DNA of 64,000 nucleotides from a virus: the IMG/VR virus record IMGVR_UViG_3300042562_002450, positions 32,001-96,000 of that record; one strand, given 5' to 3'. Position numbers and translations under genes: made by a program. This document shows, piece by piece, positions 26,830-64,000 of this stretch (the first letter of the stretch is position 1; the number at the start of each line of letters is the position of its first letter). Below the pieces are notes generated by a model. It saw only the letters and a list, made by a program, of their open reading frames with translations, was not told where the DNA came from and did no database searches.

Positions 26830-26906
26830 GGTCCCAGGGTCTGCTTGGTGAAGACGCCGGCCTGTCACGCTGGAGATGCCCGGTTCGAATCCGGGTGGGA
26901 CCGCCA
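26830..26906 (+). tRNA. tRNA-Asp(GUC), non-canonical core
   Basis: Acceptor GGTCCCA/TGGGACC, anticodon arm CCGGC-CTGTCAC-GCTGG, TTCGAAT, CCA; G8, G14, C15-G48. Confidence 0.9.
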
Positions 26907-29742: not shown

Positions 29743-29832
29743 GGAAGATTGGCCGAGTGGTTTAAGGCAGCAGTTTTGAAAACTGCCATCGGTGAAAGCC
29801 GGTCCTGGGTTCAAATCCTAGATCTTCCGCCA
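29743..29832 (+). tRNA. tRNA-Ser(UGA)
   Basis: Acceptor GGAAGAT/ATCTTCC, anticodon arm GCAGT-TTTGAAA-ACTGC, long variable arm, G73, CCA. Confidence 0.95.
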
Positions 29833-30812: not shown

Positions 30813-30890
30813 AGGGGTATCGGCAAGTTGGCTTAAGCCAGTGGATTTTGATTCCACGATTCGGTGGTTCAAATCCATCTACCCCTACCA
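30813..30890 (+). tRNA. tRNA-Gln(UUG)
   Basis: Acceptor AGGGGTA/TACCCCT, anticodon arm GTGGA-TTTTGAT-TCCAC, TTCAAAT, CCA. Confidence 0.93.
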
Positions 30891-30892
30891 AT

Positions 30893-30978
30893 GGTGTGGT
30901 ATGCAAGTGGTTAAAGCGCGCAGACTGTAAATCTGTTCTCTTCGGGGTTCGTAGGTTCAAATCCTACCCGCACCACCA
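30893..30978 (+). tRNA. tRNA-Tyr(GUA)
   Basis: Acceptor GGTGTGG/CCGCACC, anticodon arm GCAGA-CTGTAAA-TCTGT, long variable arm, CCA. Confidence 0.95.
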
Positions 30979-50438: not shown

Positions 50439-51485
50439 ATGATAAAACCAGTTGGCCTAGATGTTGGTACTCATATGTTAATTGCTTCTGAAGCTGATGC
50501 TTCTGGAGAAGTAACCTATAAAGAACAAGTTGATGCATTTTTTGTAATGGAATCAACAGATGAAGCAAAAAACATGCTAGACACACTCTCTGTCCCTTAC
50601 TCTGAAAAGAATGGAAAGACATATGTACTAGGTGAAGAAGCTAGAAAATTTGCAAATATGTTTAAGCAAGAGACTCGCCGCCCAATGCAAACGGGATGTC
50701 TTAATAAAAAAGACATTGAAGCACTTGGAATGCTTAACGCACTACTTTCTAATCTGCTAGAAAATGGCAATGGTTCCCCTATCGTCTATTCAGTCACATC
50801 TCAGCCATTAGGTAGTGAGATGAGCTTTGACTATCACAGGGCTCAAGTAGAGTCTCTATTAAAAGGAATGGGATATGAACCTAAGCCTATTCAAGAGGCT
50901 AGGGCAATTGCTCTCGCTGAGTTGGCCGCTGATCGCTTTACTGGTCTTGCTATCTCTTGTGGATCTGGCACTACCACTGTTTGGCTTGGTTTGTTGGGAA
51001 TGGATAATCCAAATTTTCAGTTTTCCATTGATCGTGGTGGTGATTGGATTGACACTAATGCTGCTGAGAATTTTGCCGGATTGACAAGAACTAAAGTTCA
51101 GACAGTAAAAGAGCGTGGCATTAAAATTAAAGAATATGAAAATGTTGAGACAGACCATCTTTCTGGCCATGAGCTTACTGAAGCTAGAGCTAAGCAAGCA
51201 CTATCTATTTACTATAGAGAGTATATCCGAGCTGTAGTTAAAGGTATTAAATATAAACTCGATAAAGAACAGCTACCTGAGTTTGATGGACCAATTCCAA
51301 TTGTTATTGCAGGTGGAACTAGTTCTCCTTCTGACTTTGTAGAAGTCTTCAAAGAAGAATGGGACAAAGCAAAGACTGGGCTAGATATCTCTGAAATCAG
51401 AAGAGCTAATGATCAATTCCGAGCTGTGTCTAAAGGTTGTTTAATTGCTGCTCAGCTTGAAGCAAAAAAGATGCTTAAGAAATAA
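50439..51485 (+). CDS. Actin/Hsp70-fold ATPase (ParM/MreB/FtsA superfamily)
   Basis: GLDVGT phosphate 1, QEARA connect 1, SCGSGTT phosphate 2, IAGGTS adenosine, AVSKG connect 2. Confidence 0.85.
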   Translation: MIKPVGLDVGTHMLIASEADASGEVTYKEQVDAFFVMESTDEAKNMLDTLSVPYSEKNGKTYVLGEEARKFANMFKQETRRPMQTGCLNKKDIEALGMLNALLSNLLENGNGSPIVYSVTSQPLGSEMSFDYHRAQVESLLKGMGYEPKPIQEARAIALAELAADRFTGLAISCGSGTTTVWLGLLGMDNPNFQFSIDRGGDWIDTNAAENFAGLTRTKVQTVKERGIKIKEYENVETDHLSGHELTEARAKQALSIYYREYIRAVVKGIKYKLDKEQLPEFDGPIPIVIAGGTSSPSDFVEVFKEEWDKAKTGLDISEIRRANDQFRAVSKGCLIAAQLEAKKMLKK

Positions 51486-51559: not shown

Positions 51560-52009
51560 ATGTATGCTAAACATGAAAAGTATATTGATACTGCCGTCGA
51601 TGGTATGATTTTCGACATTGAACATAATCTTAAAACTATGATGCCATTAGCATCCCTGTATGAGCCAATCGGCTTAACAGATTTCCGCTCCGTTTCTCTT
51701 TATGATTCAAGGGTTGGTTTTATTGAATCTAAAGGTCTTAATGTAAGTAGAGTAAGTTTTAGTGCACCGTTTCAAGGTTACATCTCATTCTTAGATATTA
51801 AGAATGCAAAACCCAGTCTTGAAGATCGATTAAACAAAATTGAGTCTACAATCTCTTCTGCGATTCAGCAGCAAAAAAGTTTTACTACCATTTCTCAATG
51901 GAAGGAAATGAATAATTTTGAAGAAAAAGAACTTCAGGTGTTAAGAAGTGCAATTAACGTTCTGAGTAATCAATTGAGTTCATTAGAAGAGGAAGTAAAA
52001 AACCTCTAA
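51560..52009 (+). CDS. Hypothetical protein with C-terminal coiled coil
   Basis: 149 aa; AGGAG RBS. Confidence 0.7.
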   Translation: MYAKHEKYIDTAVDGMIFDIEHNLKTMMPLASLYEPIGLTDFRSVSLYDSRVGFIESKGLNVSRVSFSAPFQGYISFLDIKNAKPSLEDRLNKIESTISSAIQQQKSFTTISQWKEMNNFEEKELQVLRSAINVLSNQLSSLEEEVKNL

Positions 52010-52125: not shown

Positions 52126-52548
52126 TTATATTTCTAAGTCTTGTAGAATATCCATACTTTCTTTTATCGAATCTTTACTTTTCGAAGTTTTCCCAATCTT
52201 TCCTTTTATTTCAATCTTTTCAGTTTTAATTATAACTGGACCATCATCATAATTAAAGGTCTGCTTATTGATGTCATCTGGTTGTCGTCTGGTGAATTCA
52301 GGATATGCATGCGACTGCAGCTTGTCTCCTATTCTTTCGATAATCCTATTTGCAATATCATCGACATCTAATGAAACTTCTACCTTATTTTCTCTCATAA
52401 AAGCAACCATCATGCGCTCTGCGATATCTGAAGCTTTTTTTAAAAGATCATGCTCAAGATCTAATGTGTTAAAGTAATACTGCTTGTCTCTTACAATGTT
52501 GACTGGTGGAACTCTTAGATTTTTTGTTTGTGTTGTTCTTTGTGACAT
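52126..52548 (-). CDS. Hypothetical protein
   Basis: 140 aa ORF. Confidence 0.65.
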   Translation of the reverse strand: MSQRTTQTKNLRVPPVNIVRDKQYYFNTLDLEHDLLKKASDIAERMMVAFMRENKVEVSLDVDDIANRIIERIGDKLQSHAYPEFTRRQPDDINKQTFNYDDGPVIIKTEKIEIKGKIGKTSKSKDSIKESMDILQDLEI

Positions 52549-52633: not shown

Positions 52634-53692
52634 ATGATTATCTCAGATAGCATCAATATATACTTAAAGACCACAGAGACATGTAACTTGAATTGTGATC
52701 ATTGTTTTACCTCTGGAAGCAAAGGTAGGAAGATTTTTTTTAATCCAGAGAAAACATTTCTTTTTCTAGATAAGCTTTTTAGTCATCAGAAATACAAGCA
52801 TAAAAAAGTTATTCTTCATGGTGGAGAGCCGATGCTTGCACCTGCCTCTGATATTAGAAAGATACATAAGTTAATAAAAGATAAGTATCCTGAAACAGAA
52901 TTTAGTCTACAGACAAATCTAGTATATAAGTTAAACGAAGAGCGGCAATCCTTAATTGATGATCTTTTTCTTGAAAAAGGAATGGGAACATCTTGGGATT
53001 ACAAGATGAGATTTGCTTCTTATCAACAGCAGCTTCAGTGGGAAGATAATGTTCGAGCTCTACTAGCCAAAGGTCATTACCTTTCTGTTATGGTATCTTT
53101 AAACAAAGACTTACTTGATAACTTTGAGCCTGTAGATATCATTCAGTACTTTATTGATCTTGGGATTCAGCATGTTCTTTTTGAACGCATAACCTCTAAT
53201 GGTAACGCTCTACTTAATCCTAACATTCAGCCTCAGAATAAAGATCTAGATGCTTGGCTTCTAAAGATGTATGAACAGACAATAGAATATAAGCTCTATG
53301 ATAAAATCCATAATATGTTTCTTGATGAAATAGCTACGACTTATGTTAATAGGATCCATGCTGGAAACAGATGTAGAAACTGTGAACAAAGCCTAGTTAC
53401 CATTAATGCTGATGGTAGTCTTTCTGGATGTCCTAATAGTGCTGCTAGCGAATACTGGGGAAATATTGAATGGTCGATCCAAGAAAATCTTTCCTCTAAA
53501 AAAAGATTGAAGACAATGGCTTGTGAGCTTAAGCGAAATGATAACTGCCTAACTTGTCCTGTGAATAGTATCTGCAATGGTGATTGTCATAGACTCCCCT
53601 GGCAAGGTGATATCTGCGCGGCTCCCAAAAGCCTAATGAAGATGATGAAAGAACAAAATAAGATTGAAGATTACAGAAAGTTAATGTTATGA
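52634..53692 (+). CDS. Radical SAM/SPASM protein 1
   Basis: CNLNCDHC, HGGEP, QTNL; SPASM CEQ..INADG.LSGC, CLTCPVNSICNGDC..C. Confidence 0.93.
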   Translation: MIISDSINIYLKTTETCNLNCDHCFTSGSKGRKIFFNPEKTFLFLDKLFSHQKYKHKKVILHGGEPMLAPASDIRKIHKLIKDKYPETEFSLQTNLVYKLNEERQSLIDDLFLEKGMGTSWDYKMRFASYQQQLQWEDNVRALLAKGHYLSVMVSLNKDLLDNFEPVDIIQYFIDLGIQHVLFERITSNGNALLNPNIQPQNKDLDAWLLKMYEQTIEYKLYDKIHNMFLDEIATTYVNRIHAGNRCRNCEQSLVTINADGSLSGCPNSAASEYWGNIEWSIQENLSSKKRLKTMACELKRNDNCLTCPVNSICNGDCHRLPWQGDICAAPKSLMKMMKEQNKIEDYRKLML

Positions 53693-54144
53693 ATTGGAAA
53701 ATGAGATCTAAGATATATCACATGATGACTCCTGAGCCAGGAGACAATCTTGAGAAAGAAACCATTGTTGAAGAGTGGGACAAAAAAAGTATTATAAAAA
53801 GAGCAATCGAATATCCAACTTTTCAAACTAAAGAGTTATATTATCCAGCGAAGTCATATGCAATTGCTACATTGTATGCTATTCTTTTGACTGAAAATTT
53901 TGGTGGCGAACCTCTTGATTATTTAAAAGATCCAGAATTACTTGCAGGAAATGATCCATATTTCAAACCTTACGATAGCTCTAATAAAGATATTTATTCA
54001 ATAATTTGGAGCCATATTTTTCTAGCATTGGAAGATGGTTCAGAAAAAACTTCTGAAAATTTTAATAAATCTGTACAATATTTCTACGAGGAATTTTTAC
54101 TTGCTGAAAATACAAAAGTCTACTTGCCTCCTGACGAAAGATGA
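53689..54144 (+). CDS. Hypothetical protein in radical SAM cluster
   Basis: 151 aa, ATGA-coupled to rSAM 1. Confidence 0.75.
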   Translation: MNWKMRSKIYHMMTPEPGDNLEKETIVEEWDKKSIIKRAIEYPTFQTKELYYPAKSYAIATLYAILLTENFGGEPLDYLKDPELLAGNDPYFKPYDSSNKDIYSIIWSHIFLALEDGSEKTSENFNKSVQYFYEEFLLAENTKVYLPPDER

Positions 54145-54634
54145 AATCAATAGTCTTATCTATGACTATGATCTATATCTATCTAAGAGCTTTTACATAA
54201 TCAATAAAGAACGGAAAGAATACAATGAAGATAATCATTCTCCAGATTTTATGTCTCATATACAAAAACTTGAAAAAGCATCCGGTGAAGGCTGCACTAT
54301 CATTGTTAAGAATATGGAAAGATATAACAGCCAAATACAAGAAACGGCAGAAGAGCTAGCACCAGGAACAGACGTTCATCTTTACTTAGTATTCGCTGAA
54401 GAAAGTGGAGATAGTTTTAATTGGCATAGAGATGATAAACCAGTTTGGATAAAAATGATCTATGGTGAGAAATTTTTTTCAATTAGATCAAGAGCAAAAG
54501 AAACTGTTTTCATAGATTCCTATAAAGTAAAAGAAAATGGATACTTATATATTGGATTAAGAGAGCATAGAGCTGAACCAATGGGACCATCTGCTATGTT
54601 AAGCTTTGGCTTGCCCAATCAAGAAGATCTCTAA
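54035..54634 (+). CDS. JmjC/cupin-like Fe(II) oxygenase (start uncertain)
   Basis: FNWHRDD..VWIKMIYGEK, LYIG..EHRA..SAMLSFG. Confidence 0.7.
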   Translation: MVQKKLLKILINLYNISTRNFYLLKIQKSTCLLTKDEINSLIYDYDLYLSKSFYIINKERKEYNEDNHSPDFMSHIQKLEKASGEGCTIIVKNMERYNSQIQETAEELAPGTDVHLYLVFAEESGDSFNWHRDDKPVWIKMIYGEKFFSIRSRAKETVFIDSYKVKENGYLYIGLREHRAEPMGPSAMLSFGLPNQEDL

Positions 54635-55532
54635 AACCACTACATGATTTTTCAATTGATTTAACATCGCGATAATGTTCTGTTAAGCATCGTCCCAAGT
54701 AAGGACATGCTGAACATATCGGATTTGATTTAACCTTAGTCTTTTCTAATCTAGCCCATAACAAGTATTCGTTAAAGCTATCCATCTCAAAAAAGTACTC
54801 ATTTTGTTCCAGATCAAACTCGAGAACGCCAAACTTTCCATTGGGAGTAATATAAACATGGCTATCACTATAAGCAGAATATAAACCACTGAGACTATCC
54901 TTGATCCTGTTTTTATTTATAAATGTAAAGTTTTTACGAATAGGAGAGATTAACCATTGCTTAACAAATTCTTCATACTCCTTATCAGTTACAGGTAAGG
55001 TATTTGCTTGGTTAGATGAGTATGGCTTTATCTCAACTGAAACTACATTTTGATATGTATTAAGTATACCGATCATCCTGTTAATGTCTAATTTCAACAA
55101 GTTAGGTGATGCCAACATTAGTATGGCAATTGGTTTCGATATCTTAGCCATGTTACTAAGTACCAACTCATGCTTCTCTCTGGCTTCAAAATCTAAGCTA
55201 ACAGAAAGATCTACATAGTCATGTAAGAAATATGAATTTATTTTAGAAAGATTTGTGATAACACTTATGCTTGGTTTCGAATAAACATTTAAAATTTCAT
55301 CTAATTTTTCCAAATAAGTAGGAGAAAGCAATCCTACTTCTCCACCATACAGATCTACGTGCTCTATGTAATAGCCATGGCTTCTTATCTCTTCAACCAT
55401 TGCAACAAGCCTTGATGGATCTAGTTTCTTTTGATCAGCTAATTGTTCTGGTCTAAGATAACAAAACTCACATCTAAAGTTACAAAGATATGTTGGATTT
55501 AAAGATATTGTTAATGGCTTAGCAGAGTCCAT
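54594..55532 (-). CDS. Radical SAM/SPASM-type protein 2
   Basis: CNFRCEFC, YGGE, ITNL; C-terminal CSACPYLGRC..C. Confidence 0.92.
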   Translation of the reverse strand: MDSAKPLTISLNPTYLCNFRCEFCYLRPEQLADQKKLDPSRLVAMVEEIRSHGYYIEHVDLYGGEVGLLSPTYLEKLDEILNVYSKPSISVITNLSKINSYFLHDYVDLSVSLDFEAREKHELVLSNMAKISKPIAILMLASPNLLKLDINRMIGILNTYQNVVSVEIKPYSSNQANTLPVTDKEYEEFVKQWLISPIRKNFTFINKNRIKDSLSGLYSAYSDSHVYITPNGKFGVLEFDLEQNEYFFEMDSFNEYLLWARLEKTKVKSNPICSACPYLGRCLTEHYRDVKSIEKSCSGFRDLLDWASQSLT

Positions 55533-56538
55533 GTTCTATTGCTCTCTTTCTAAACTCTTTCATTTTGACACAGCTTTCTTCGACAAGATTGTGCCTCTTT
55601 AGATCTTGAACTGTTTTATAGCATCCATTACATATAATAAAGTTTGGACAAGAAAGACATTCTTCTTTTTGATACTGAATGTTATGATCTGACTGTAGTG
55701 GCTTAAAGAATTCTCCAGCCATCTCTTTTTCAAAATCAATAGGATATTCCTGATCATCTCCCAATGATCCACATGATCCATACTCATATCCACTTTCGGA
55801 AACAGGCTGCAGATTTCTTATTCCCTCATCGCATTTTCTATTCTGAGGACATGTTGTAAATTCAGAGCCTTTGAGTCTCATAAGCATTTGTTTGGTAGAG
55901 TATTCCCATTCAGATAATCCAGCCTCGTATACGTTCATGTATATCTCATACATGTAACCAATAGGGAAAGGTCTCCCTTCTCTACCTGATGCCATTGCAT
56001 AATTCATCTTGCATTCAGCGCCGATATGTTTCGCAAGCCTTACATTGTTTAGTGCAAGATGCTTGTTATCTTCCGTAATTACAGAAATGAAATGTGGAAC
56101 ATATCCAAAGTCACCTTTGAATTTGTCTATAACTTTTAAAAATATTTCCTCAGTAAAGACTTGTCCTGGTCGTATTTGTCGGCTATCGCCATAATGAAAT
56201 GAAGTACATATTTGAACCTGAGATTGACTAAAAAGTTCTCTCCATTTGTCTGGATGAAGCCAATAGTCCCATAAGTTAGTAGTAAAACTGATGACACAAT
56301 CTGTCATCTTTCTTTCTTCTAGCATCTTAATTATTTGCCAGTAATACTCAGGAGATACCATAAGAGGATCTCCTCCATTTACTATTATTGTTTTAGTTTC
56401 TGGGAATCTATCAAGAAATTGACGGACCTTGTCTATATCAAGATCATCGATCGGTTTATTAGATTTTGCAATCTCTGTTGAGCTACAGAACGTACATGAG
56501 AAATTACACCTTTGCGTTGGCTTAATGATGAGATCCAT
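55519..56538 (-). CDS. Radical SAM/SPASM protein 3
   Basis: CNFSCTFC, NGGDP, TTNL; CPQNRKC..GSC, CLSCPNFIICNGC..C. Confidence 0.93.
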   Translation of the reverse strand: MDLIIKPTQRCNFSCTFCSSTEIAKSNKPIDDLDIDKVRQFLDRFPETKTIIVNGGDPLMVSPEYYWQIIKMLEERKMTDCVISFTTNLWDYWLHPDKWRELFSQSQVQICTSFHYGDSRQIRPGQVFTEEIFLKVIDKFKGDFGYVPHFISVITEDNKHLALNNVRLAKHIGAECKMNYAMASGREGRPFPIGYMYEIYMNVYEAGLSEWEYSTKQMLMRLKGSEFTTCPQNRKCDEGIRNLQPVSESGYEYGSCGSLGDDQEYPIDFEKEMAGEFFKPLQSDHNIQYQKEECLSCPNFIICNGCYKTVQDLKRHNLVEESCVKMKEFRKRAIEHGLC

Positions 56539-56630: not shown

Positions 56631-57365
56631 ATGGCAATAGTAAAAGATGAAGGTATCACAAGAGAAGATATCATCAATAAATTTAACTTGAGAGTAAGAG
56701 ACTGGGTAGCTTCAAATGTTACTCTACTTGGAAATAGAACTTATACAGCAAGTCATTCTGTATGGAATGGAACTCCAGGTTGGAAAAATGGTGGTGACAC
56801 TTCAGGTCCTGCGTACAGAGTGACTAGAACATTAAACTCGACAGCAGCAGCACTTGCTCTTAATTCAACAAATGCTGGTGGTGCAACAGACTCAATATTG
56901 AATACAGACCGTATACTTTCTGAAGTAATGCTTACTAGTGATTTTACTCCTGACGTAGGTGCAGCAAATAGCACTGGGCATGTAATTAAAATATTAAGAG
57001 ACATGATGGCTTCATACTCAAGAGTTCACCAGATTCGTATTCAGAATATAGGAAATCTTACATTCTCAATTTCTGGAGTAGCAGGAACTATGCTGTCTGA
57101 TACTGGAGTTGCAATTGGAACGACAACCAGACCAACAGCTATTGCTTTGATGAATACAGATATGGATTTATATATAAATACTAATAATTTAAAAGCTGGT
57201 GGCACTCTTGATGCAGATAAGTTCAACAACTTTCTTGAAACATGTAGATCTATATGGCTTAATCGCTGTGTAAACTCAGGAGTGCTAGAAACATTTAACT
57301 TTAGCTATTGCCACTCATCATGTCATTCAAATGTTACTTGTTATAACTCAAGAGGCCGAAGGTAA
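56631..57365 (+). CDS. Putative radical SAM substrate protein A (C-terminal CHSSCHS motif)
   Basis: 244 aa, Thr/Ala/Gly/Asn-rich; ends FSYCHSSCHSNVTCYNSRGRR. Confidence 0.75.
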   Translation: MAIVKDEGITREDIINKFNLRVRDWVASNVTLLGNRTYTASHSVWNGTPGWKNGGDTSGPAYRVTRTLNSTAAALALNSTNAGGATDSILNTDRILSEVMLTSDFTPDVGAANSTGHVIKILRDMMASYSRVHQIRIQNIGNLTFSISGVAGTMLSDTGVAIGTTTRPTAIALMNTDMDLYINTNNLKAGGTLDADKFNNFLETCRSIWLNRCVNSGVLETFNFSYCHSSCHSNVTCYNSRGRR

Positions 57366-57369
57366 AGTT

Positions 57370-57987
57370 ATGTCTATTATTTTAAATAATACAATTACTA
57401 GAGAAAATATTATTGCAAAATTTAATGAAAGAGTTAGAGACTGGGTAGTCTCTAATACTAACTTCTTAAATGCGACTCCAGTATGGAATCAAACTGTTGG
57501 TTACATAACAGCAAACAGCTCAGCTTTTGGTGGAGGTATTAACCGGATAACAGAAGTTTCGGCTACTCCAGTTTCTATTCAGGTCACAGATTTAATATCT
57601 AACATCGGTGCTGATAATTCAGCTGCAGGAAAAATCGTAAAAGTATTAAAAGATTTCTTAATCTTATATGCAAATAATCATAGAATAACATTAAACAATA
57701 CTGGGAATCTTGCTCCAGCAAATTATGTTGGAGTCGCAAGACTTAATGGAACGCCACTTGCAACACAAACTGCAATAGGAACTGATGTTGACGCTGCAGC
57801 AATTGCAAGTAATGTTTCTAATGGTCAACTTATAACTGCATTAAATCTTAATAGTTTTATTGAGTCATGTAGAACAATTTGGACTAATAGAGCATTCACT
57901 CCAAGCTTAGAAACATTTAATTATAGTTATTGTCATTCATCGTGCCACTCAAATGTTACTTGTTACAATTCAAGAGGTCGAAGGTAA
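57370..57987 (+). CDS. Putative radical SAM substrate protein B, paralog of A (start corrected to 57370)
   Basis: 205 aa; ITRENIIAKFNERVRDWV matches ITREDIINKFNLRVRDWV; ends YSYCHSSCHSNVTCYNSRGRR. Confidence 0.75.
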   Translation: MSIILNNTITRENIIAKFNERVRDWVVSNTNFLNATPVWNQTVGYITANSSAFGGGINRITEVSATPVSIQVTDLISNIGADNSAAGKIVKVLKDFLILYANNHRITLNNTGNLAPANYVGVARLNGTPLATQTAIGTDVDAAAIASNVSNGQLITALNLNSFIESCRTIWTNRAFTPSLETFNYSYCHSSCHSNVTCYNSRGRR

Positions 57988-57995
57988 GGTTATCT

Positions 57996-59132
57996 ATGGA
58001 GAAAACCTTAATAAACAAAGATGGCCCAAAGAGTATTAATGATTTCTTGAAGATCAAAGAGTCATATAAAACAAAAGACTCAATGCTTCTCTCTATATTT
58101 AAAGAGAAGACTCCACCTTATACTGAGATTGAAATTTCTTTCTTTGAACTATGCAATCTACATTGTCGTTTTTGCTGGCAAGATAATTATAATCCCACTG
58201 GAATTAATTCAATTAAAGAAAAAGCAGAAATTGTAATCGACTATCTAGATAAGCAAAAGGAAAGGCTACAGCCAAATATTCAAGTACACATGCTTGGTGG
58301 TGAGCTCTTTGAAGATAGCAATGATTACTATGATCAGTATTATTCTTTTATTAGTTCTATTTCTGAATATGTAAAAGCTAAAATGCCTGAAAAACATTTA
58401 CGCTTTGTCTTTTTAACTAATATGAATTTTCAAAAAGATGAGACCAAAATGAAGCTGGAGCATTTCCTCTTAAAGCTTCAACTTAAAGAAATTAAGTTTA
58501 TTCTAACTACATCTTGGGATCCAACAGGTCGCCCACTCAAAGGTGATATTGAGACTCAGTTCCATAAGAACATTACTTACTTTAAGGAGTATCTAAGTGA
58601 GGTAACTTTCGTATTAACGAAATCAACAATAAACCGACTTTTACAAGATAAAAATGATTACCTTGATCTATTAGTAAATCAAGGCTTTAACATCGATTAT
58701 GATTACTATATGCCCACAACCTGGGTTGATCAAATGATGCCTAGTGATAGAGATCTGCTTAATGCCTTTAGGTATCTAATTTATAAATATCCAAATATCC
58801 GTAAGTTAAAAGCATGGACAAGCAAGGAACCTGGAGAAGGAACTATCAGTTGTGCTAGCCTTAATAAGATAACAATACTACCAGATGGTACTATTACTAA
58901 CTGTAGACATCTTAAATATGATCAAAAAGATTTTGAAAGCAAGGTGCAAAATGAATCAAATAGTGATATGATTCTAACCTATCTATCAAAGCGCGAGTGT
59001 TTAAACTGCCCTTACTTTAAGGAGTGTCCTCTAAGTTGTTTCCTTATGGCTGATCATAAGAAATTTAATGGAAACTTAGAGCTTTCTGAGTGTCTTTATA
59101 GTATCCTTTTTAAGGAAAAATATAAGAGGTAA
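57996..59132 (+). CDS. Radical SAM/SPASM protein 4 (start corrected to 57996)
   Basis: CNLHCRFC, LGGE, LTNM; CASL..ILPDG..TNC, CLNCPYFKECPLSC..C. Confidence 0.92.
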   Translation: MEKTLINKDGPKSINDFLKIKESYKTKDSMLLSIFKEKTPPYTEIEISFFELCNLHCRFCWQDNYNPTGINSIKEKAEIVIDYLDKQKERLQPNIQVHMLGGELFEDSNDYYDQYYSFISSISEYVKAKMPEKHLRFVFLTNMNFQKDETKMKLEHFLLKLQLKEIKFILTTSWDPTGRPLKGDIETQFHKNITYFKEYLSEVTFVLTKSTINRLLQDKNDYLDLLVNQGFNIDYDYYMPTTWVDQMMPSDRDLLNAFRYLIYKYPNIRKLKAWTSKEPGEGTISCASLNKITILPDGTITNCRHLKYDQKDFESKVQNESNSDMILTYLSKRECLNCPYFKECPLSCFLMADHKKFNGNLELSECLYSILFKEKYKR

Positions 59133-59134
59133 AT

Positions 59135-59866
59135 ATGAATACTAAAACTTTAATTAAAACATTGCCTTTATCAACTGATGATTTGATTTCTCTTTTTGAT
59201 AATCCAGGCCAGATCTTAGATATTGATTATTCTAAATCATCTTTAAAGGATGATGCATTTTTTGCATATGTTTCTAATGTTAAGATTCAATGTCGTCTTC
59301 ATGGTTATGAGGATCTCTCCTATAATGAAAAAGAAAGATTATTAAATTCATTTATTAATTCAAAATATACAATGGAAATTGAAAATCTAAAAGAAACTAT
59401 TGTTGGTATTCTACTTAATGCAGATCCTAAAAGTATTTCTTTTTTCAAAGAAGATGAAATTGAAAAATACAAAGTAGAAAATAGAGATAGATTAAATCAG
59501 CTAGTTCAATTTTTTAATTCAATGCTAATAATGATTCCATCTATATCTAGTGATTTTAAGAAACTCTTTATAGACACAGGGATAGAGGATGGCTCAATAG
59601 CAGAGATTGATGGAACTGATTTTATAACTCCAAATATTTATAACTTAACTTTTTATCCAGGTTTTATTGATCTCTTTATTGGCAATCAAGAAGAAGAACA
59701 TTCTTTAGTCTTTTACAAAGGTGTTATCGATAGCTACCAATATAAAAATAAAAGCTTTTTCTCTCTTCTTACTGATAATGAAACAGCACCAAATCTAATT
59801 ACAATTTTTAATTATTTCTTTATTGAAAATGAAGAAAGTGAAAAAGAACTAAAAGAAGCCATCTAA
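59135..59866 (+). CDS. Hypothetical protein in radical SAM cluster
   Basis: 243 aa, GAGG RBS. Confidence 0.75.
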   Translation: MNTKTLIKTLPLSTDDLISLFDNPGQILDIDYSKSSLKDDAFFAYVSNVKIQCRLHGYEDLSYNEKERLLNSFINSKYTMEIENLKETIVGILLNADPKSISFFKEDEIEKYKVENRDRLNQLVQFFNSMLIMIPSISSDFKKLFIDTGIEDGSIAEIDGTDFITPNIYNLTFYPGFIDLFIGNQEEEHSLVFYKGVIDSYQYKNKSFFSLLTDNETAPNLITIFNYFFIENEESEKELKEAI

Positions 59867-59880
59867 CAAAGGTAAAAAAT

Positions 59881-61011
59881 ATGATCCACTTCCTAGGTAA
59901 AGTATTCCTTGAATATACTGAAACCAAACCACAACTTGACCATATGACTGTAAAGCCATCTCAATATATAAGAATTGTAGATAGAGGGCTTGCTAACATT
60001 ATGGATAGTTACTCAATCAATAAGCACATTGCAAACTTTAAAGATGTAGAAGAATGTCTTGAGAAATTCGTAACATTTGATAATTTTATTTCTTTCCTTA
60101 ATGAGAAAGAAAAAGAAGAAAGAGTTATTATTTACTGTGATGAAGTCTCTATGCCAAAACTTCTTTGTAGTCTTTGGAAGAGTATCTTCCCTGGCATAAC
60201 TAAAGAAATTGCATATAGTTTTTATGTCTCATATAAAGACAATGAATACTTCAGAAGAGATGACAGAAATGAGTATATTGAGATAGATATTAATAGTGCT
60301 AAAATAGAAAAGACAGCATTCCTTACTCGTTACTGGGACTTAGATAGAGAACTTTTTTATTCTTATTTTGATAATGCAGAATCTTTTAGTCTTGAGAATA
60401 AAGAAACAGCAATTGGCCTTGAGTTTGCCTTCACCAAGTTATTGCTAGACAATGAAAGATTTAAGCCTGTTTTTTCTGAGAAGTTAGAATATCTATATAA
60501 AAAGAATATCTCTAAAGAAATCATTTTCATGATCTCAACTATAAGAGAACATTGTCTTATTCTTCTAAGAAAAAAAGGAATAATGAATGAGATCATGCTT
60601 AATGACACATCGGTAATCGACTATCTTAAAGGACAGGAAAGATATAATATTCTTTTTGATGGGAACGTTAAGCATGCACCAGAGACCTATGATTATCTTA
60701 GATCTAAAGGAAACATTTTAAAACTTATTTCAGATCTTACATTTGACTGTTCAGTTATCCACAAAGAGATAAATCCAAGTTTTGTTTCTTTTGAAGAATT
60801 TAAACAAGAAAATCCAATTTGTTCATATATTCTTGAACAAAAGAAAGAACCTATTCTTGAAGACTTAATGGATGCTAATATTCTTAAGTTCTCTAATTAT
60901 CATTTCATTAGAAGTTATGTACAAACTGGTATTTTTAATTACTTTCTTCTTCAGTCTATTTGCATTACAAATGAAGCCAACCCTTCAGCACTAGATGCTC
61001 TTAAAGTCTAA
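59881..61011 (+). CDS. Hypothetical protein in radical SAM cluster
   Basis: 376 aa, AAGG RBS. Confidence 0.75.
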   Translation: MIHFLGKVFLEYTETKPQLDHMTVKPSQYIRIVDRGLANIMDSYSINKHIANFKDVEECLEKFVTFDNFISFLNEKEKEERVIIYCDEVSMPKLLCSLWKSIFPGITKEIAYSFYVSYKDNEYFRRDDRNEYIEIDINSAKIEKTAFLTRYWDLDRELFYSYFDNAESFSLENKETAIGLEFAFTKLLLDNERFKPVFSEKLEYLYKKNISKEIIFMISTIREHCLILLRKKGIMNEIMLNDTSVIDYLKGQERYNILFDGNVKHAPETYDYLRSKGNILKLISDLTFDCSVIHKEINPSFVSFEEFKQENPICSYILEQKKEPILEDLMDANILKFSNYHFIRSYVQTGIFNYFLLQSICITNEANPSALDALKV

Positions 61012-61468
61012 TCAGCTACTTAATAGAATCAATAAGGAAGGATTTGTATTTGCAGAATACGATCCTTCTTTAATACAATATCTTCAATCTCATGAAGATA
61101 GAATTCTTATTCTAAAAGAATGGATTAAAGAGATAATAGATATAGAAGGTGAAACTCTGTATGCAGACTGGGAAGCTCTAGATAAAGACCAATCCATCAA
61201 GCTCCATTATCATGTTATCCCTGGATCTTTTCAAGCAGTAACATGGGTTCCTGAAAATAACTTTGAAGGTAGAGAATTCCTATACGGCATAAAGGATGAA
61301 ATCTTAAAGGTAAAGCCCAGACTGGGTCTTATTTGTTTCTTTAAACCAAATGATGAAAACTATATACATGGAGTGGCTCCACTACTTAGCGACACTAAGG
61401 TCTATAGCTATGGCTTTACTAGTTCAGTTTTGGATATTTCTCAAACAGAAAATGATATTTACGTATGA
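60995..61468 (+). CDS. 2OG-Fe(II) oxygenase-like protein
   Basis: LHYH..., FEGREF, KVKP..GLICFF, distal IHGV. Confidence 0.6.
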   Translation: MLLKSNQLLNRINKEGFVFAEYDPSLIQYLQSHEDRILILKEWIKEIIDIEGETLYADWEALDKDQSIKLHYHVIPGSFQAVTWVPENNFEGREFLYGIKDEILKVKPRLGLICFFKPNDENYIHGVAPLLSDTKVYSYGFTSSVLDISQTENDIYV

Positions 61469-62298
61469 ACATAACTGCTAAGCAGGATAACTTCTTGATC
61501 GGCTTTTAGCTTCTCGACTTTATGAACAAATCTTGGATTATAAGTATTTAAGAATAAGACCATTCCATCTTTAATTTCAATTTTAGTTTCTTTAATTATA
61601 TTTCCACTTCTGCAAATACCTTTCTGGTCTAACTCTATTGTTAAGAGATCTCTTTCTCCAATAACTAGTTCTCTTCCTTCTATCTTTTTAGAGTTAGAGA
61701 AGTAATTGAATATCATATAATAGACCCCAGGTGTGTAATCCATATGGAAACTATACGGTCCTCTTGTGTCTAATTCATTTTCTTTATATCTGTACTTCAG
61801 AGCATCTGTAGATATTATTCTCCTATCTAATCTTAATGGTCCAGAATACTTAGGGACATTAAGAACTATATAGTTTAACTCTTCAGCATTTGAATTCAAT
61901 ATACTTAATGGTAGGTTGTCATCTTTAAAAAAGACAATGCTGTTTATCTTTTCTCTTACCTTTTCATGCACATCATAGTGAGCTACAAAGTAGCCATCAT
62001 GTTGCATGTCGCGCCAAAAGTAATCAAAACTATTTTTCTTATTACCAATGAAAGAGATTGGGATAAAGCTTCCAGCTTTATACTCTGATGAGCTATCTTT
62101 ACTATAGATTTCGTCTATATAGTATCCATCCTCTGTGACCTTAATGAATTCAAATTCAAGATTAGGTAGGAATACCATCTCTCCATAAAGATCCGTAAAA
62201 TAGGAATAAAGCCATGACTTTTTAAATTCATCAGGAGTTCCAAACCAGCCCTTACCTTTAGTAAAGAAATTAATAGTTTCTGGTGTCATTAGTCCCAC
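61459..62298 (-). CDS. 2OG-Fe(II) oxygenase-like protein
   Basis: FHMD, IEGREL, NTYNPRFVHKV. Confidence 0.65.
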   Translation of the reverse strand: MGLMTPETINFFTKGKGWFGTPDEFKKSWLYSYFTDLYGEMVFLPNLEFEFIKVTEDGYYIDEIYSKDSSSEYKAGSFIPISFIGNKKNSFDYFWRDMQHDGYFVAHYDVHEKVREKINSIVFFKDDNLPLSILNSNAEELNYIVLNVPKYSGPLRLDRRIISTDALKYRYKENELDTRGPYSFHMDYTPGVYYMIFNYFSNSKKIEGRELVIGERDLLTIELDQKGICRSGNIIKETKIEIKDGMVLFLNTYNPRFVHKVEKLKADQEVILLSSYVHT

Positions 62299-62827
62299 TT
62301 TTTATAAAAAAGTTAACTCTGTATGTATATCTATCTACTGGTGTTGGTAGTACTGCATGTGGATGTGTATAGAAGGTTGGCATAATAATCATTCTTCCGG
62401 CTCTTGGCTTTATAACTAAAGATTGTTTTGGAAAGACAATTTCTCCTCCTTCAATATCTTGGAGGTAAAGCAAGACTATAAAATTTCTCCTTAGTCCACC
62501 TTCAGAGATCTCATTATCGTAATGCATAGTCAAACCAGTGCCAGTCTTTAGTTTTAATAGCATACTATTTTCCAAATAATACTCAGCTTGAACCGTACCT
62601 ATTGATTGGAGATATTTGTCTACTTCCTTCTGGGCTAGTTCTCTAACATTAGAGTCAAAAGCTTTTAAGCTTTGAATCTTATCTAGGTTCATGAACTCAT
62701 GCTGCTCTCCATCGAAATTGATCTCTTTTGTTTTTCTTTGAAGATTTTCTTTCTCTAATGAAAAAATAAACTCTTCACAGGATTCTTTAGATATTAAATT
62801 ATCAATTTGGCGTATGAAGGTTTCCAT
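62270..62827 (-). CDS. 2OG-Fe(II) oxygenase (prolyl-hydroxylase-like)
   Basis: MHYD, LLYL..EGGEIVF, P.AGRMII.P, HAVLP, RY. Confidence 0.85.
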   Translation of the reverse strand: METFIRQIDNLISKESCEEFIFSLEKENLQRKTKEINFDGEQHEFMNLDKIQSLKAFDSNVRELAQKEVDKYLQSIGTVQAEYYLENSMLLKLKTGTGLTMHYDNEISEGGLRRNFIVLLYLQDIEGGEIVFPKQSLVIKPRAGRMIIMPTFYTHPHAVLPTPVDRYTYRVNFFIKSGTNDTRNY

Positions 62828-63750
62828 TATCTTTTTAACTTTATTTGATCAACAATAGAATGCATACTTAAGTGAGAAGGAATACTGTACATCTTTCCAG
62901 GCCCATGGAACTCTGAAACCTCATGATAAAAACGCGGATTAAAAACATTAACAAGAACACTGATGTTGGTATCTGCCCATATCTTATTCTCTTCTTTTCT
63001 ATCTGCAACTATATTATTTGTAGCTTCCCAGTCTTCGGTTATTATTGAATGAAACATATAATCATACCAGTCATAACTTCCAGTACATAAATAACGAGAA
63101 CCAGAGTTTTCTGTATTATAACTAACCATATTTACAAACATACGAAAATCAACATCATTATGAGGTAATATACTTCGTCCCTTGTTCCACTCTAAAGCGA
63201 TACAATCAAAGGCATCCATTGAAGACAATATTGGAGAAAAGCTAACTACTCGCTTCAGTTCTTTTTCTACATTCTTGTAAACATCTCGACATGTACTATT
63301 TTGGAAGTTTGGTTTTCCCCAAGCATTAGAATTGAATTTTAAAGTTTTAGATGGCTCTGTAGCTCTTTCACAACCAAGATCACTAAATGGTAGTCTTGGA
63401 AGTTTGTATAGTGTATTTTCAATATATGCTCTTGTATTGTTAGCTATAGCATATCCATGAGTAGATAATGCTGAGCCTATATTGCTAAATTCAATATCTC
63501 CCTTATTAAAGTTAATACCTTCAAAAGTAATATACTGATCTGAAGGATCTCCATACTCTTTGAATACATTCTCAAGTAAACGTACAAAACCTTGCTTTTT
63601 TACAATCTTAATAAAACCAGAGCTAGAGACTACAAGTTTTTTCTTATAAAGCATTTCAAAATATTTACAAAGATCAGACTCGAAGAATTCTTCAATGTTT
63701 CTAATATCAACAATATTGTAATCAAAGAAGTCTTTGGCAATCTTAAGCAT
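62827..63750 (-). CDS. 2OG-Fe(II) oxygenase-like protein
   Basis: PHND, NVFNPRFYHEV. Confidence 0.65.
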   Translation of the reverse strand: MLKIAKDFFDYNIVDIRNIEEFFESDLCKYFEMLYKKKLVVSSSGFIKIVKKQGFVRLLENVFKEYGDPSDQYITFEGINFNKGDIEFSNIGSALSTHGYAIANNTRAYIENTLYKLPRLPFSDLGCERATEPSKTLKFNSNAWGKPNFQNSTCRDVYKNVEKELKRVVSFSPILSSMDAFDCIALEWNKGRSILPHNDVDFRMFVNMVSYNTENSGSRYLCTGSYDWYDYMFHSIITEDWEATNNIVADRKEENKIWADTNISVLVNVFNPRFYHEVSEFHGPGKMYSIPSHLSMHSIVDQIKLKR

Positions 63751-64000
63751 GTAGCTTCTTTTCTTTTAGATTAATGCTATCTCTCCATTCCCTTGAGTTG
63801 ATGCCAATGCCACCTATGATTACATATAACTCTGAGTCAGAAGTTAGTTCTGTTACTCCATGGTATGTATTCTCAGCAAAAGCATTAATAAAACAGAGGA
63901 GACCAGGTATGGGCCGAACCTTTAAATTGTAATCAGGACTGACAATATGAAGGTCTCGCCCAACAAAGGTATTGTCTTTAGGTATGTAAAGAAGAACCTC
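63743..64000 (-). CDS. Partial 2OG-Fe(II) oxygenase-like protein (5' end outside window)
   Basis: Hand translation EVLLYIPKDNTFVGRDLHIV...KVRPIPGLLCFINAF..TYHGVTEL...KLHA*; resembles the 60995 ORF. Confidence 0.6.
   Translation of the reverse strand, partial: EVLLYIPKDNTFVGRDLHIVSPDYNLKVRPIPGLLCFINAFAENTYHGVTELTSDSELYVIIGGIGINSREWRDSINLKEKKLHA

Follow-up and report, generated by a model that had tools for sequence, protein, structure and literature searches.

Two adjacent genes at positions 56631-57987 of the phage DNA studied here encode proteins that end in the same Cys/His-rich peptide, and they lie among four genes for radical S-adenosylmethionine (SAM) enzymes, which we call rSAM1 to rSAM4. 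The DNA is a 64,000-nucleotide (nt) stretch, referred to below as the window, that comprises bases 32001-96000 of a 198,626-bp virus record with an estimated completeness of 89%. The best reading of the data, which we regard as probable by a modest measure, is that rSAM1 to rSAM4 enzymatically modify the C-terminal tail of a virion protein; the link between the enzymes and this substrate is drawn from the gene neighborhood. We set out below the conservation of the tail, its association with the enzymes across phages, and the recovery of a distant homologue from phage particles.

Two old paralogues with an identical tail

The two genes, A and B, and their tails are located as follows.

56631..57365, + strand: gene A, long paralogue (244 amino acids [aa]) of a Cys/His-tailed phage protein family; open reading frame (ORF), BLASTP versus gene B E 1e-48
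57309..57362, + strand: gene A tail, residues 227-244, CHSS-CHSN-VTCYNS-RGRR
57370..57987, + strand: gene B, short paralogue (205 aa); ORF, start set by homologues
57931..57984, + strand: gene B tail, residues 188-205, identical in protein sequence to the gene A tail

The true start of gene B, common to all homologues, is the ATG at 57370, 4 nt past the gene A stop codon, rather than position 57331, which was given by an ORF finder. The two proteins are 39% identical (BLASTP, E 1e-48), and the homologues P0002-P0006 are 36 to 45% identical to gene A. The shared C-terminal peptide, ETFN(F/Y)SYCHSSCHSNVTCYNSRGRR, is encoded by 57288-57365 and 57910-57987. An earlier note, made from the letters of this DNA, had reported that 24 of the final 25 residues are identical, with 10 synonymous differences and 1 nonsynonymous difference between the two coding sequences, and these counts were reproduced exactly. 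Within the 18 tail codons, there are 8 synonymous and 0 nonsynonymous differences. The same note had described a highly divergent middle, a 39-aa difference in length, and a conserved N terminus; with the gene B start at 57370, all of this holds. The proportion of nonsynonymous differences (pN, Nei-Gojobori) is 0.46 in the middle and 0.26 at the N terminus, where I-T-R-E-x-I-I-x-K-F-N-x-R-V-R-D-W-V is kept in both proteins.

In the last 25 codons, pN is 0.017 and the proportion of synonymous differences (pS) is 0.65, as against a pS of 0.70 in the middle, and the regional dN/dS is about 0.01. Since synonymous sites are saturated along the whole length of the two genes, the identity of the tails stems from purifying selection and not from recent duplication or gene conversion. 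The duplication is old, and it is selection at the protein level that keeps the tail, as the earlier note had argued. A quick maximum-likelihood tree places the 12 long forms in one clade (support of 99) nested among short forms, and all tails in which Thr-Cys-Tyr replaces the third Cys-His unit fall into one group of 19. This topology points to one duplication, at the base of the freshwater phage clade, that postdates the change in the tail; both paralogues still carry the altered form.

Terminal Arg-Gly-Arg-Arg is encoded by purine-rich, Shine-Dalgarno-like codons (AGA GGx CGA AGG; 57348-57372 and 57970-57998). Because the next genes start 4 nt (gene B) and 8 nt (rSAM4) past the respective stop codons, these tail codons may double as the ribosome-binding site of the following gene. 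A scan for promoters and terminators was uninformative, promoter-like sites being fewer than in shuffled sequence.

The tail in a phage protein family

A full HMMER search over 1.84 billion representatives yielded a family of 49 representatives at 50% identity, with members of 180 to 260 aa, that is confined to phage-type contigs; a word-indexed search recovered just 11 relatives. The tail is present in all 49 except P0046, a 69-aa fragment, and among the 66 full-length sequences recovered (55 distinct tails), none lacks this kind of tail. Judged by sequence comparison, the resemblance between the tails of A and B is far beyond chance.

Across the family, the tail is 12 to 19 residues long and opens with Cys-His, mostly with Tyr before it. 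Its interior is built of His/Ser(/Cys) units with a period of 4 (CHSS CHSN CHGS) or 3 (HSN HSN HSS HGS), and some tails carry Phe or Tyr in place of His. Many members have a single Cys (C-HSN-HSN-HSS-HGS-RGRR), and the third Cys-His unit is Thr-Cys-Tyr in the clade of the window. The extreme C terminus reads Ser-Arg-Gly-Arg-Arg in 46 of the 55 distinct tails. Among 52 aligned members, no columns are invariant other than Met1, the tail-opening Cys-His, and R-x-R-R; in a smaller alignment (A1), C227, H228, S230, C231, H232, T236, C237, Y238, S240, R241, G242, R243, and R244 are invariant. Genes A and B belong to this family by their homologous body, the Cys-His start of the tail, the terminal R-x-R-R, and the presence of rSAM1 to rSAM4 orthologues nearby.

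Two members come from cultured phages. ORF068 of Ralstonia phage RSL2 ends in VCHSSCHTSCHGSRGRR, gp170 of Agrobacterium phage Atu_ph07 ends in FCHSSCHASCHNSRSRR, and for both, the match to the family profile extends past the tail (hhalign, 98%, E about 1e-13; gp170, E 1.4e-13). Searches of GenBank phages by tblastn with gene A and with a (CHxS)3 member gave no match; as these two homologues do exist in GenBank, the blanks mark a limit of sensitivity rather than absence.

The tailed protein and radical SAM enzymes occur together

The genes that surround the pair in the window, together with the pair itself, form what we refer to as the cassette. Related loci on other contigs carry labels beginning with L.

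52634..53692, + strand: rSAM1, radical SAM/SPASM enzyme; CNLNCDHC; C-x2-C-x5-C-x3-C; phrog_1802, 3.5e-59
53689..54144, + strand: g151, small conserved cassette protein
54035..54634, + strand: cupin/JmjC-like oxygenase; L006/L007 orthologue with PF08007 (JmjC_2)
54594..55532, - strand: rSAM2, radical SAM enzyme; CNFRCEFC; phrog_1802, 4.5e-39
55519..56538, - strand: rSAM3, radical SAM enzyme, best conserved of the four; CNFSCTFC
57996..59132, + strand: rSAM4, divergent radical SAM/SPASM enzyme; CNLHCRFC; C-x2-C-x5-C-x3-C; phrog_1802, 1.2e-31
59135..59866, + strand: g243, conserved cassette protein (phrog_20767, 1.9e-17)
62270..62827, - strand: 2-oxoglutarate (2OG)-Fe(II) oxygenase; phrog_81, 3e-06; phrog_2297, 9e-15; syntenic orthologues with PF13640

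All four enzymes contain the CxxxCxxC motif of the radical SAM/SPASM superfamily and belong to phrog_1802, and C-x2-C-x5-C-x3-C is visible in rSAM1 and rSAM4. Against PF04055 (gathering score of 29.5), rSAM1, rSAM2, and rSAM3 score 33.5, 34.9, and 39.1 bits, respectively, and rSAM4 falls below the cutoff with 21.8 bits. Against the SPASM family TIGR04085 (cutoff of 27), rSAM1 passes with 33.2 bits, and rSAM4 scores 21.4. The rSAM3 protein is 47 to 50% identical to proteins of 15 cultured-phage records.

To follow the linkage across phages, we used 13 related loci and the window, which represent 10 gene arrangements with enough flanking sequence. Radical SAM/SPASM genes lie within about 10 kb of the gene for the tailed protein in 10 of 10 arrangements, and orthologues of all four enzymes do so in 9 of them. 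In the tenth (L022), six radical SAM-like genes are found near the tailed-protein gene, and only an rSAM1-like and an rSAM3-like gene were matched. Thus, the outcome that the earlier note had named as fatal to its proposal, a motif found mostly without neighboring radical SAM genes, is not what is seen. The usual order on one strand is rSAM1, tailed protein, g243, rSAM4, rSAM3, rSAM2, g151, with g243 and g151 usually present; in the clade of the window, the cassette is partly inverted and the tailed-protein gene is duplicated. In most other phages, rSAM1 adjoins the tailed-protein gene, which is usually translationally coupled to it.

Four syntenic contigs have a layout identical to that of the window, with the long and short pair. 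Since they share its phage clade, they carry little weight by themselves, and distant relatives are more telling. The distant loci include three other viral contig types, in which the tailed proteins are merely 22 to 32% identical, five phage-like contigs binned into bacterial metagenome-assembled genomes, and two cultured jumbo phages reached via rSAM3. The cassette is found in unrelated genera, namely, in RSL2 (Chiangmaivirus) and in Atu_ph07 (Polybotosvirus). Orthologues of rSAM1 were detected in L012-L021, RSL2, and Atu_ph07 (E 1e-81 to 1e-109) and orthologues of rSAM2 in all distant loci (E 1e-72 to 1e-107); the corresponding values are E 1e-79 to 1e-111 for rSAM3 and E 1e-29 to 1e-57 for rSAM4. 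The g151 gene co-occurs in L014, L016, RSL2, and L019-L021, and g243 comes after the tailed-protein gene in L012, L016 (E 1e-4), RSL2, Atu_ph07, and L019-L021. Some loci have extra radical SAM genes, up to a total of seven CxxxCxxC proteins, and the tailed-protein gene is the sole Cys-rich partner that constantly accompanies the enzymes.

These data also bear on a reading in which the tail binds a metal (Zn, Fe, Ni, or Cu) or forms disulfides with no enzymatic modification, and the substrate of the radical SAM enzymes is something else, such as nucleic acid, a small molecule, or different virion proteins. The composition of the tail (17% His and 13% Cys) and the C-H-x-x-C-H spacing, which resembles that of metal sites, speak for this reading, as do the giant fiber-like genes that often lie beside the cassette and could encode the real substrates. 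We consider it unlikely, however, because the single Cys of many members and the change of His to Phe or Tyr in some are a better fit to the aromatic-x-x motifs of modifying enzymes. A metal site would also leave unexplained why the terminal S-R-G-R-R is conserved as strongly as Cys-His, and the tailed protein is both the only constant Cys-rich companion of the enzymes and, as a rule, coupled in translation to rSAM1.

A predicted folded body with a flexible end, and a homologue found in phage particles

An AlphaFold model of gene B, built on the 52-member alignment (predicted local distance difference test [pLDDT] of 91; predicted template modeling score of 0.85), has a helix-rich body with two beta hairpins. 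The pLDDT is above 90 in the body and falls to about 50 in residues 190-205. According to the model, the body is a compact folded domain of about 185 residues, and the tail looks like an exposed flexible extension of it. Searches for solved relatives of the body gave no clear PDB match (best Foldseek E of 0.2; best VIA-align Z of 4.8), and its BFVD matches are uncharacterized phage proteins only, one of them from Atu_ph07.

Mass spectrometry of purified phage detected the Atu_ph07 homologue, gp170, by 8 unique peptides (35% coverage) in gel bands 1 to 9 (PMC6102473 Table S5). Although gp170 has a mass of 31.89 kDa, its peak is in band 1; other proteins of 30 to 32 kDa peak in bands 7 and 8, and it is proteins of 117 to 137 kDa that peak in bands 1 and 2 (PMC6102473 Table S5). 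The gene numbering is confirmed by the computed masses of gp170 (31.89 kDa), gp176, and gp177, which equal the values in the table. The radical SAM proteins of Atu_ph07 are missing from the particle list (PMC6102473 Table S5). From this one distant homologue, the family member seems to be particle associated and to be present partly in SDS-resistant large species. The earlier suggestion that the variable part of the protein is a structural domain agrees with the folded body and with the particle association of gp170.

A classical ribosomally synthesized, posttranslationally modified peptide (RiPP) would require a different fate: the 185-residue body would be a long leader, and the modified tail would be cleaved and released as a free bioactive peptide. 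The C-terminal location, the richness in Cys, His, and Ser, and the flanking radical SAM/SPASM enzymes are typical of RiPP precursors, and long leaders occur in other RiPP classes. However, in the cassette genes that were scanned (Pfam, PHROG, and NCBIfam), no peptidase, exporter, or transporter family was detected. Moreover, CxxxCxxC begins at about residue 10 to 25 in rSAM1 to rSAM3, so that there is no space for an N-terminal leader-recognition (RiPP recognition element [RRE]) domain. The body is conserved and is predicted with confidence to be folded, and the Atu_ph07 homologue was recovered as a protein in particles. On these grounds, we regard release of a free peptide as very unlikely, and the term "core peptide," which the earlier note had applied to the C terminus, would probably not suit it in the sense of a cleaved product.

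Proposed modification of the tail

In the mechanism that we favor, rSAM1 to rSAM4 would act on the exposed C-terminal tail of A and B, probably assisted by the cupin/2OG oxygenases, g243, and g151. The tail would be modified before or during the entry of the protein into the phage particle, so that RiPP-like chemistry would take place on a structural protein and no free peptide would be made. As to the chemistry, we can only guess at carbon-carbon or thioether cross-links at His/Cys/Tyr-x-x units, comparable to those of triceptides and ranthipeptides, and possibly at a JmjC-type oxygenase that hydroxylates His or Arg. Enzymes of the JmjC_2 type hydroxylate Arg or His in ribosomal proteins. The His-x-x, Phe-x-x, and Tyr-x-x units of the tails would fit the aromatic-to-beta-carbon cross-links of triceptides. 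There are precedents in radical SAM enzymes that cross-link His-x-x motifs in triceptides (PMC11499958) and in those that mature the His-x-Ser repeat protein HxsA (PMC13128918).

Several points weigh against this proposal. The argument from enzymes to substrate is one of gene neighborhood, and the particle evidence comes from one distant homologue. The Atu_ph07 stock was purified with polyethylene glycol only, and the list of proteins includes ribonucleotide reductase and a RecA-like protein (PMC6102473); contamination is therefore possible. The top-band signal of gp170 could be due to aggregation or disulfides and not to an enzymatic cross-link. In RSL2, ORF068 is annotated as hypothetical, while it is the neighboring genes that are labeled "virion structural protein." Finally, four enzymes and several oxygenases are much for one 18-residue tail, and there may be further substrates.

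What the modified tail would do in the particle is more speculative. It might become reactive or cross-linked and then form a covalent bond with a different protein of the particle, for example, the adjacent giant fiber-like protein, or else the modified basic His/Ser tail might contact DNA at the entry or exit channel, like mature HxsA; we offer this extension tentatively and consider it doubtful. Covalent attachment of the tail would explain why the 32-kDa gp170 is found chiefly in the top SDS-PAGE band.

The basic, His-rich end (RGRR) could also be taken as an assembly or packaging signal or as a DNA-binding element, any enzymatic modification being secondary. R-x-R-R is invariant at the very end of the protein, and, in the bacterial system, mature HxsA binds DNA through its basic His-x-Ser repeats (PMC13128918). 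Such a role would, however, leave the invariant Cys-His and the obligatory set of radical SAM enzymes unexplained, and no DNA-binding family was detected in the body by Pfam, NCBIfam, and fold scans; we think it quite improbable as an account of the tail.

Relation to described radical SAM systems

The earlier note had connected the tail with His-Xaa-Ser (HXS) radical SAM systems and with ranthipeptide or sactipeptide substrates. By analogy, the nearest described system in its logic would be the bacterial HXS antiphage defense (Li et al., Nat Commun 2026), in which HxsA, a protein with His-x-Ser repeats, is matured by two radical SAM enzymes together with HxsD (PMC13128918). In both cases, a whole protein with short basic His/Ser repeat units goes together with more than one dedicated radical SAM enzyme and a small helper protein (PMC13128918). 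HXS is bacterial (99.7% Pseudomonadota) and has two radical SAM enzymes, whereas the cassette described here is viral and has four, together with oxygenases. HxsA is periplasmic and has a peptidoglycan-binding domain and internal repeats, whereas the repeat described here is at the extreme C terminus, with a Cys start and an RGRR end. No NCBIfam match to HxsA (TIGR03979) was found for A, B, or the RSL2, Atu_ph07, and L012 homologues, even at an E value of 10, and A and B are without any Pfam domain, a peptidoglycan-binding domain included. The window tail has one strict H-x-S (HSS), versus the five tandem His-Xaa-Ser repeats that serve as the HxsA criterion. As a candidate HxsB (TIGR03978) or HxsC (TIGR03977), rSAM3 scored 24.7 bits against a cutoff of 370 and 27.3 against 267.9, respectively, and rSAM2 was weaker. 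No NCBIfam match of any kind, to HxsD (TIGR03976) or otherwise, was found at 51560-52009, 52126-52548, 53689-54144, 59135-59866, or 59881-61011.

The closest named relatives of rSAM1 are the peptide- or protein-modifying enzymes YhhB, PapB, anSME, and DynA (NCBIfam; all far below the family cutoffs), and a profile of rSAM1 orthologues has ChlB, anSME, and CteB among its matches to solved structures. Triceptide radical SAM/SPASM enzymes (YhhB, HaaB, HtkB, and ChlB) join an aromatic residue (His, via C2, among them) to the beta-carbon of the residue two positions on, within repeated aromatic-x-x units (PMC11499958). The tails described here are likewise built of H-S-N, H-S-S, H-G-S, F-S-Q, and Y-N-S units; as a sequence pattern, aromatic-X-X substrates can be read in C-HSS-C-HSN-VTC-YNS-RGRR and in the HSN, HSS, HGS, and FSQ units of relatives. 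YhhB gives the best NCBIfam match to rSAM1, and ChlB is its top relative among solved structures. In triceptide systems, however, the precursors are short peptides that carry a leader, and the enzymes contain a region that binds it, whereas here there are a folded carrier, an invariant Cys, and four enzymes. When rSAM1 was tried as a triceptide synthase (test families YhhB NF041707, XyeB TIGR04496, GrrM TIGR04261, and FxsB TIGR04269), it scored 60.7 bits versus a cutoff of 445 for YhhB, 41.9 versus 370 for FxsB, and 29.1 versus 310 for GrrM.

Like the maturases of ranthipeptides and sactipeptides (PapB, CteB, and the SCIFF maturase), which act on Cys-rich C-terminal cores, the enzymes of the cassette are of the SPASM type. 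PapB is the second-best match of rSAM1, over nearly its full length, and CteB is among the solved relatives. Many family members contain just one Cys, so that the formation of thioethers cannot be the only reaction conserved, which sets the system apart from ranthipeptides. The scores of rSAM1 as PapB (NF047865) and as the SCIFF maturase (TIGR03974) were 58.5 bits versus 340 and 25.4 versus 425, respectively, and an RRE domain is lacking. A further likeness is to anSME (PDB 4K36-4K39), a minimal radical SAM/SPASM enzyme that lacks a leader-recognition domain and has a full-size protein as its substrate, in which it modifies Cys or Ser; the rSAM1 profile aligns with anSME end to end (positions 15-320). 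As anSME (TIGR03942), rSAM1 scored 57.4 bits versus 349.45, and C/S-x-P/A-x-R is absent from the tail. Against the CXXX-repeat maturase TIGR04115, rSAM1 scored 31.5 bits (cutoff of 350). A weak lead is PF27846 (tSAM_targ_Cxxx_rpt, Pfam 38.1), which labels 25% of one weakly similar Atlas cluster (score of 0.79); Atlas searches gave leads below 0.9 only, and a second search was without a usable match. By these profile scores and motifs, the cassette falls outside the HXS, triceptide, ranthipeptide, and anSME families, and neither assignment made in the earlier note is borne out.

In the phiKZ-related Ralstonia phages RP12 and RP31, a radical SAM cluster (537, 360, and 419 aa and an MgoB-like gene) lies behind a 295-aa ORF (PMC5468394). 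It gave no rSAM3 match at 1e-10 and looks like a different system. In searches of the literature on phage radical SAM enzymes, RiPPs, and virion modification, genes of the cassette appeared only in annotation lists, as accessory or of unassigned function; no paper found describes such a modification of a virion protein tail, and a large review of jumbo phages nowhere mentions radical SAM.

Other cassette genes and variant loci

For the cupin/JmjC-like protein of the window (54035-54634), no Pfam match rose above threshold, and phmmer matches were found in L012, L020, and Atu_ph07 (gp172). The 2OG-Fe(II) oxygenase gene belongs to a block of oxygenase-like genes at 60995-64000, and g376 is a further uncharacterized neighbor in the window. 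Pfam and NCBIfam scans of g151 were without a match. The model of g243 has a pLDDT of 85; a fold search gave no clear match (best Z of 4.5), with weak partial resemblance to beta/alpha barrels, including the radical SAM cores of ChlB, anSME, and SuiB. The g243 protein is without CxxxCxxC and without profile similarity to rSAM1.

Several loci differ in the surroundings of the tailed protein. On L023, a contig binned as Rhodobacteraceae that ends 2 kb past the genes in question, an independent tandem pair (L023:9195-10030; 137 and 140 aa) has the tails CHTSCHSSCHTSRGRR and CHASCHSSCHTSRGRR and lies directly behind a 2859-aa ORF. On L022, a 208-kb contig labeled Gemella, the tail (L022:9971-10561) ends in CHSSCHSNCHHR, without RGRR, and six CxxxCxxC proteins are encoded around it. 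In several lineages, a giant ORF directly precedes the cassette or the tailed-protein gene, as in L014:210-9854 (3214 aa), where the start of the tailed-protein gene overlaps the stop of the giant ORF, and in L018:1-4013 (Atu_ph07 gp180, a 13-kb "virion structural protein" gene). Genes for dihydrofolate reductase or thymidylate synthase lie in or beside the cassette in three unrelated lineages (L006:67-1131, L017:12822-13358, and L012:7965-8624), maybe by coincidence.

Genome context

The window encodes a DNA polymerase, a primase-helicase, a ribonucleotide reductase, PhoH, and collagen-like tail fibers, as well as the following tRNAs.

2236-2312: tRNA Arg-TCT
26830-26906: tRNA Asp-GTC
29743-29832: tRNA Ser-TGA
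30813-30890: tRNA Gln-TTG
30893-30978: tRNA Tyr-GTA

An actin-superfamily protein of 348 aa is encoded at 50439-51485 (+), between the tail-fiber genes and the cassette, a position specific to the phage clade of the window. PF25216 (Volactin) was assigned to its orthologues in the syntenic contigs, and PHROG and NCBIfam scans of the window protein itself were without a match.

Contigs of lake-water metagenomes from at least 4 studies match 56631-57987 at 99% identity or more. The single difference among the contigs of four lake runs is a synonymous change, 57873 A>G, in the codon for Arg168. The phage genotype is widespread and nearly clonal in lake-water metagenomes, and with a single synonymous difference across the lake runs, variation is too low for a population test of selection. 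No RNA data set is listed as containing the 56631-57987 stretch.

Implications

Maturation by radical SAM enzymes is known for small peptides that are secreted, for a few enzymes, and, since 2026, for one bacterial defense protein; it is not known to have been described for a virus particle. If the tail is joined covalently to another particle protein, it would be an enzyme-made covalent rivet in the virion. Because the cassette is carried by cultured phages, the idea is directly testable, and the natural variants of the tail (period 4, period 3, and Thr-Cys-Tyr) form a ready series of substrates for new radical SAM chemistry. The paralogue pair suggests that a single set of enzymes can act on two carriers with bodies that have drifted apart to 39% identity. 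A cassette of 10 to 12 kb has been kept together with one small tailed protein in a lake-water phage, in phiKZ-related Ralstonia phages, and in the 490-kb Atu_ph07, and its retention across such different phages argues for an important step in virion maturation or infection.

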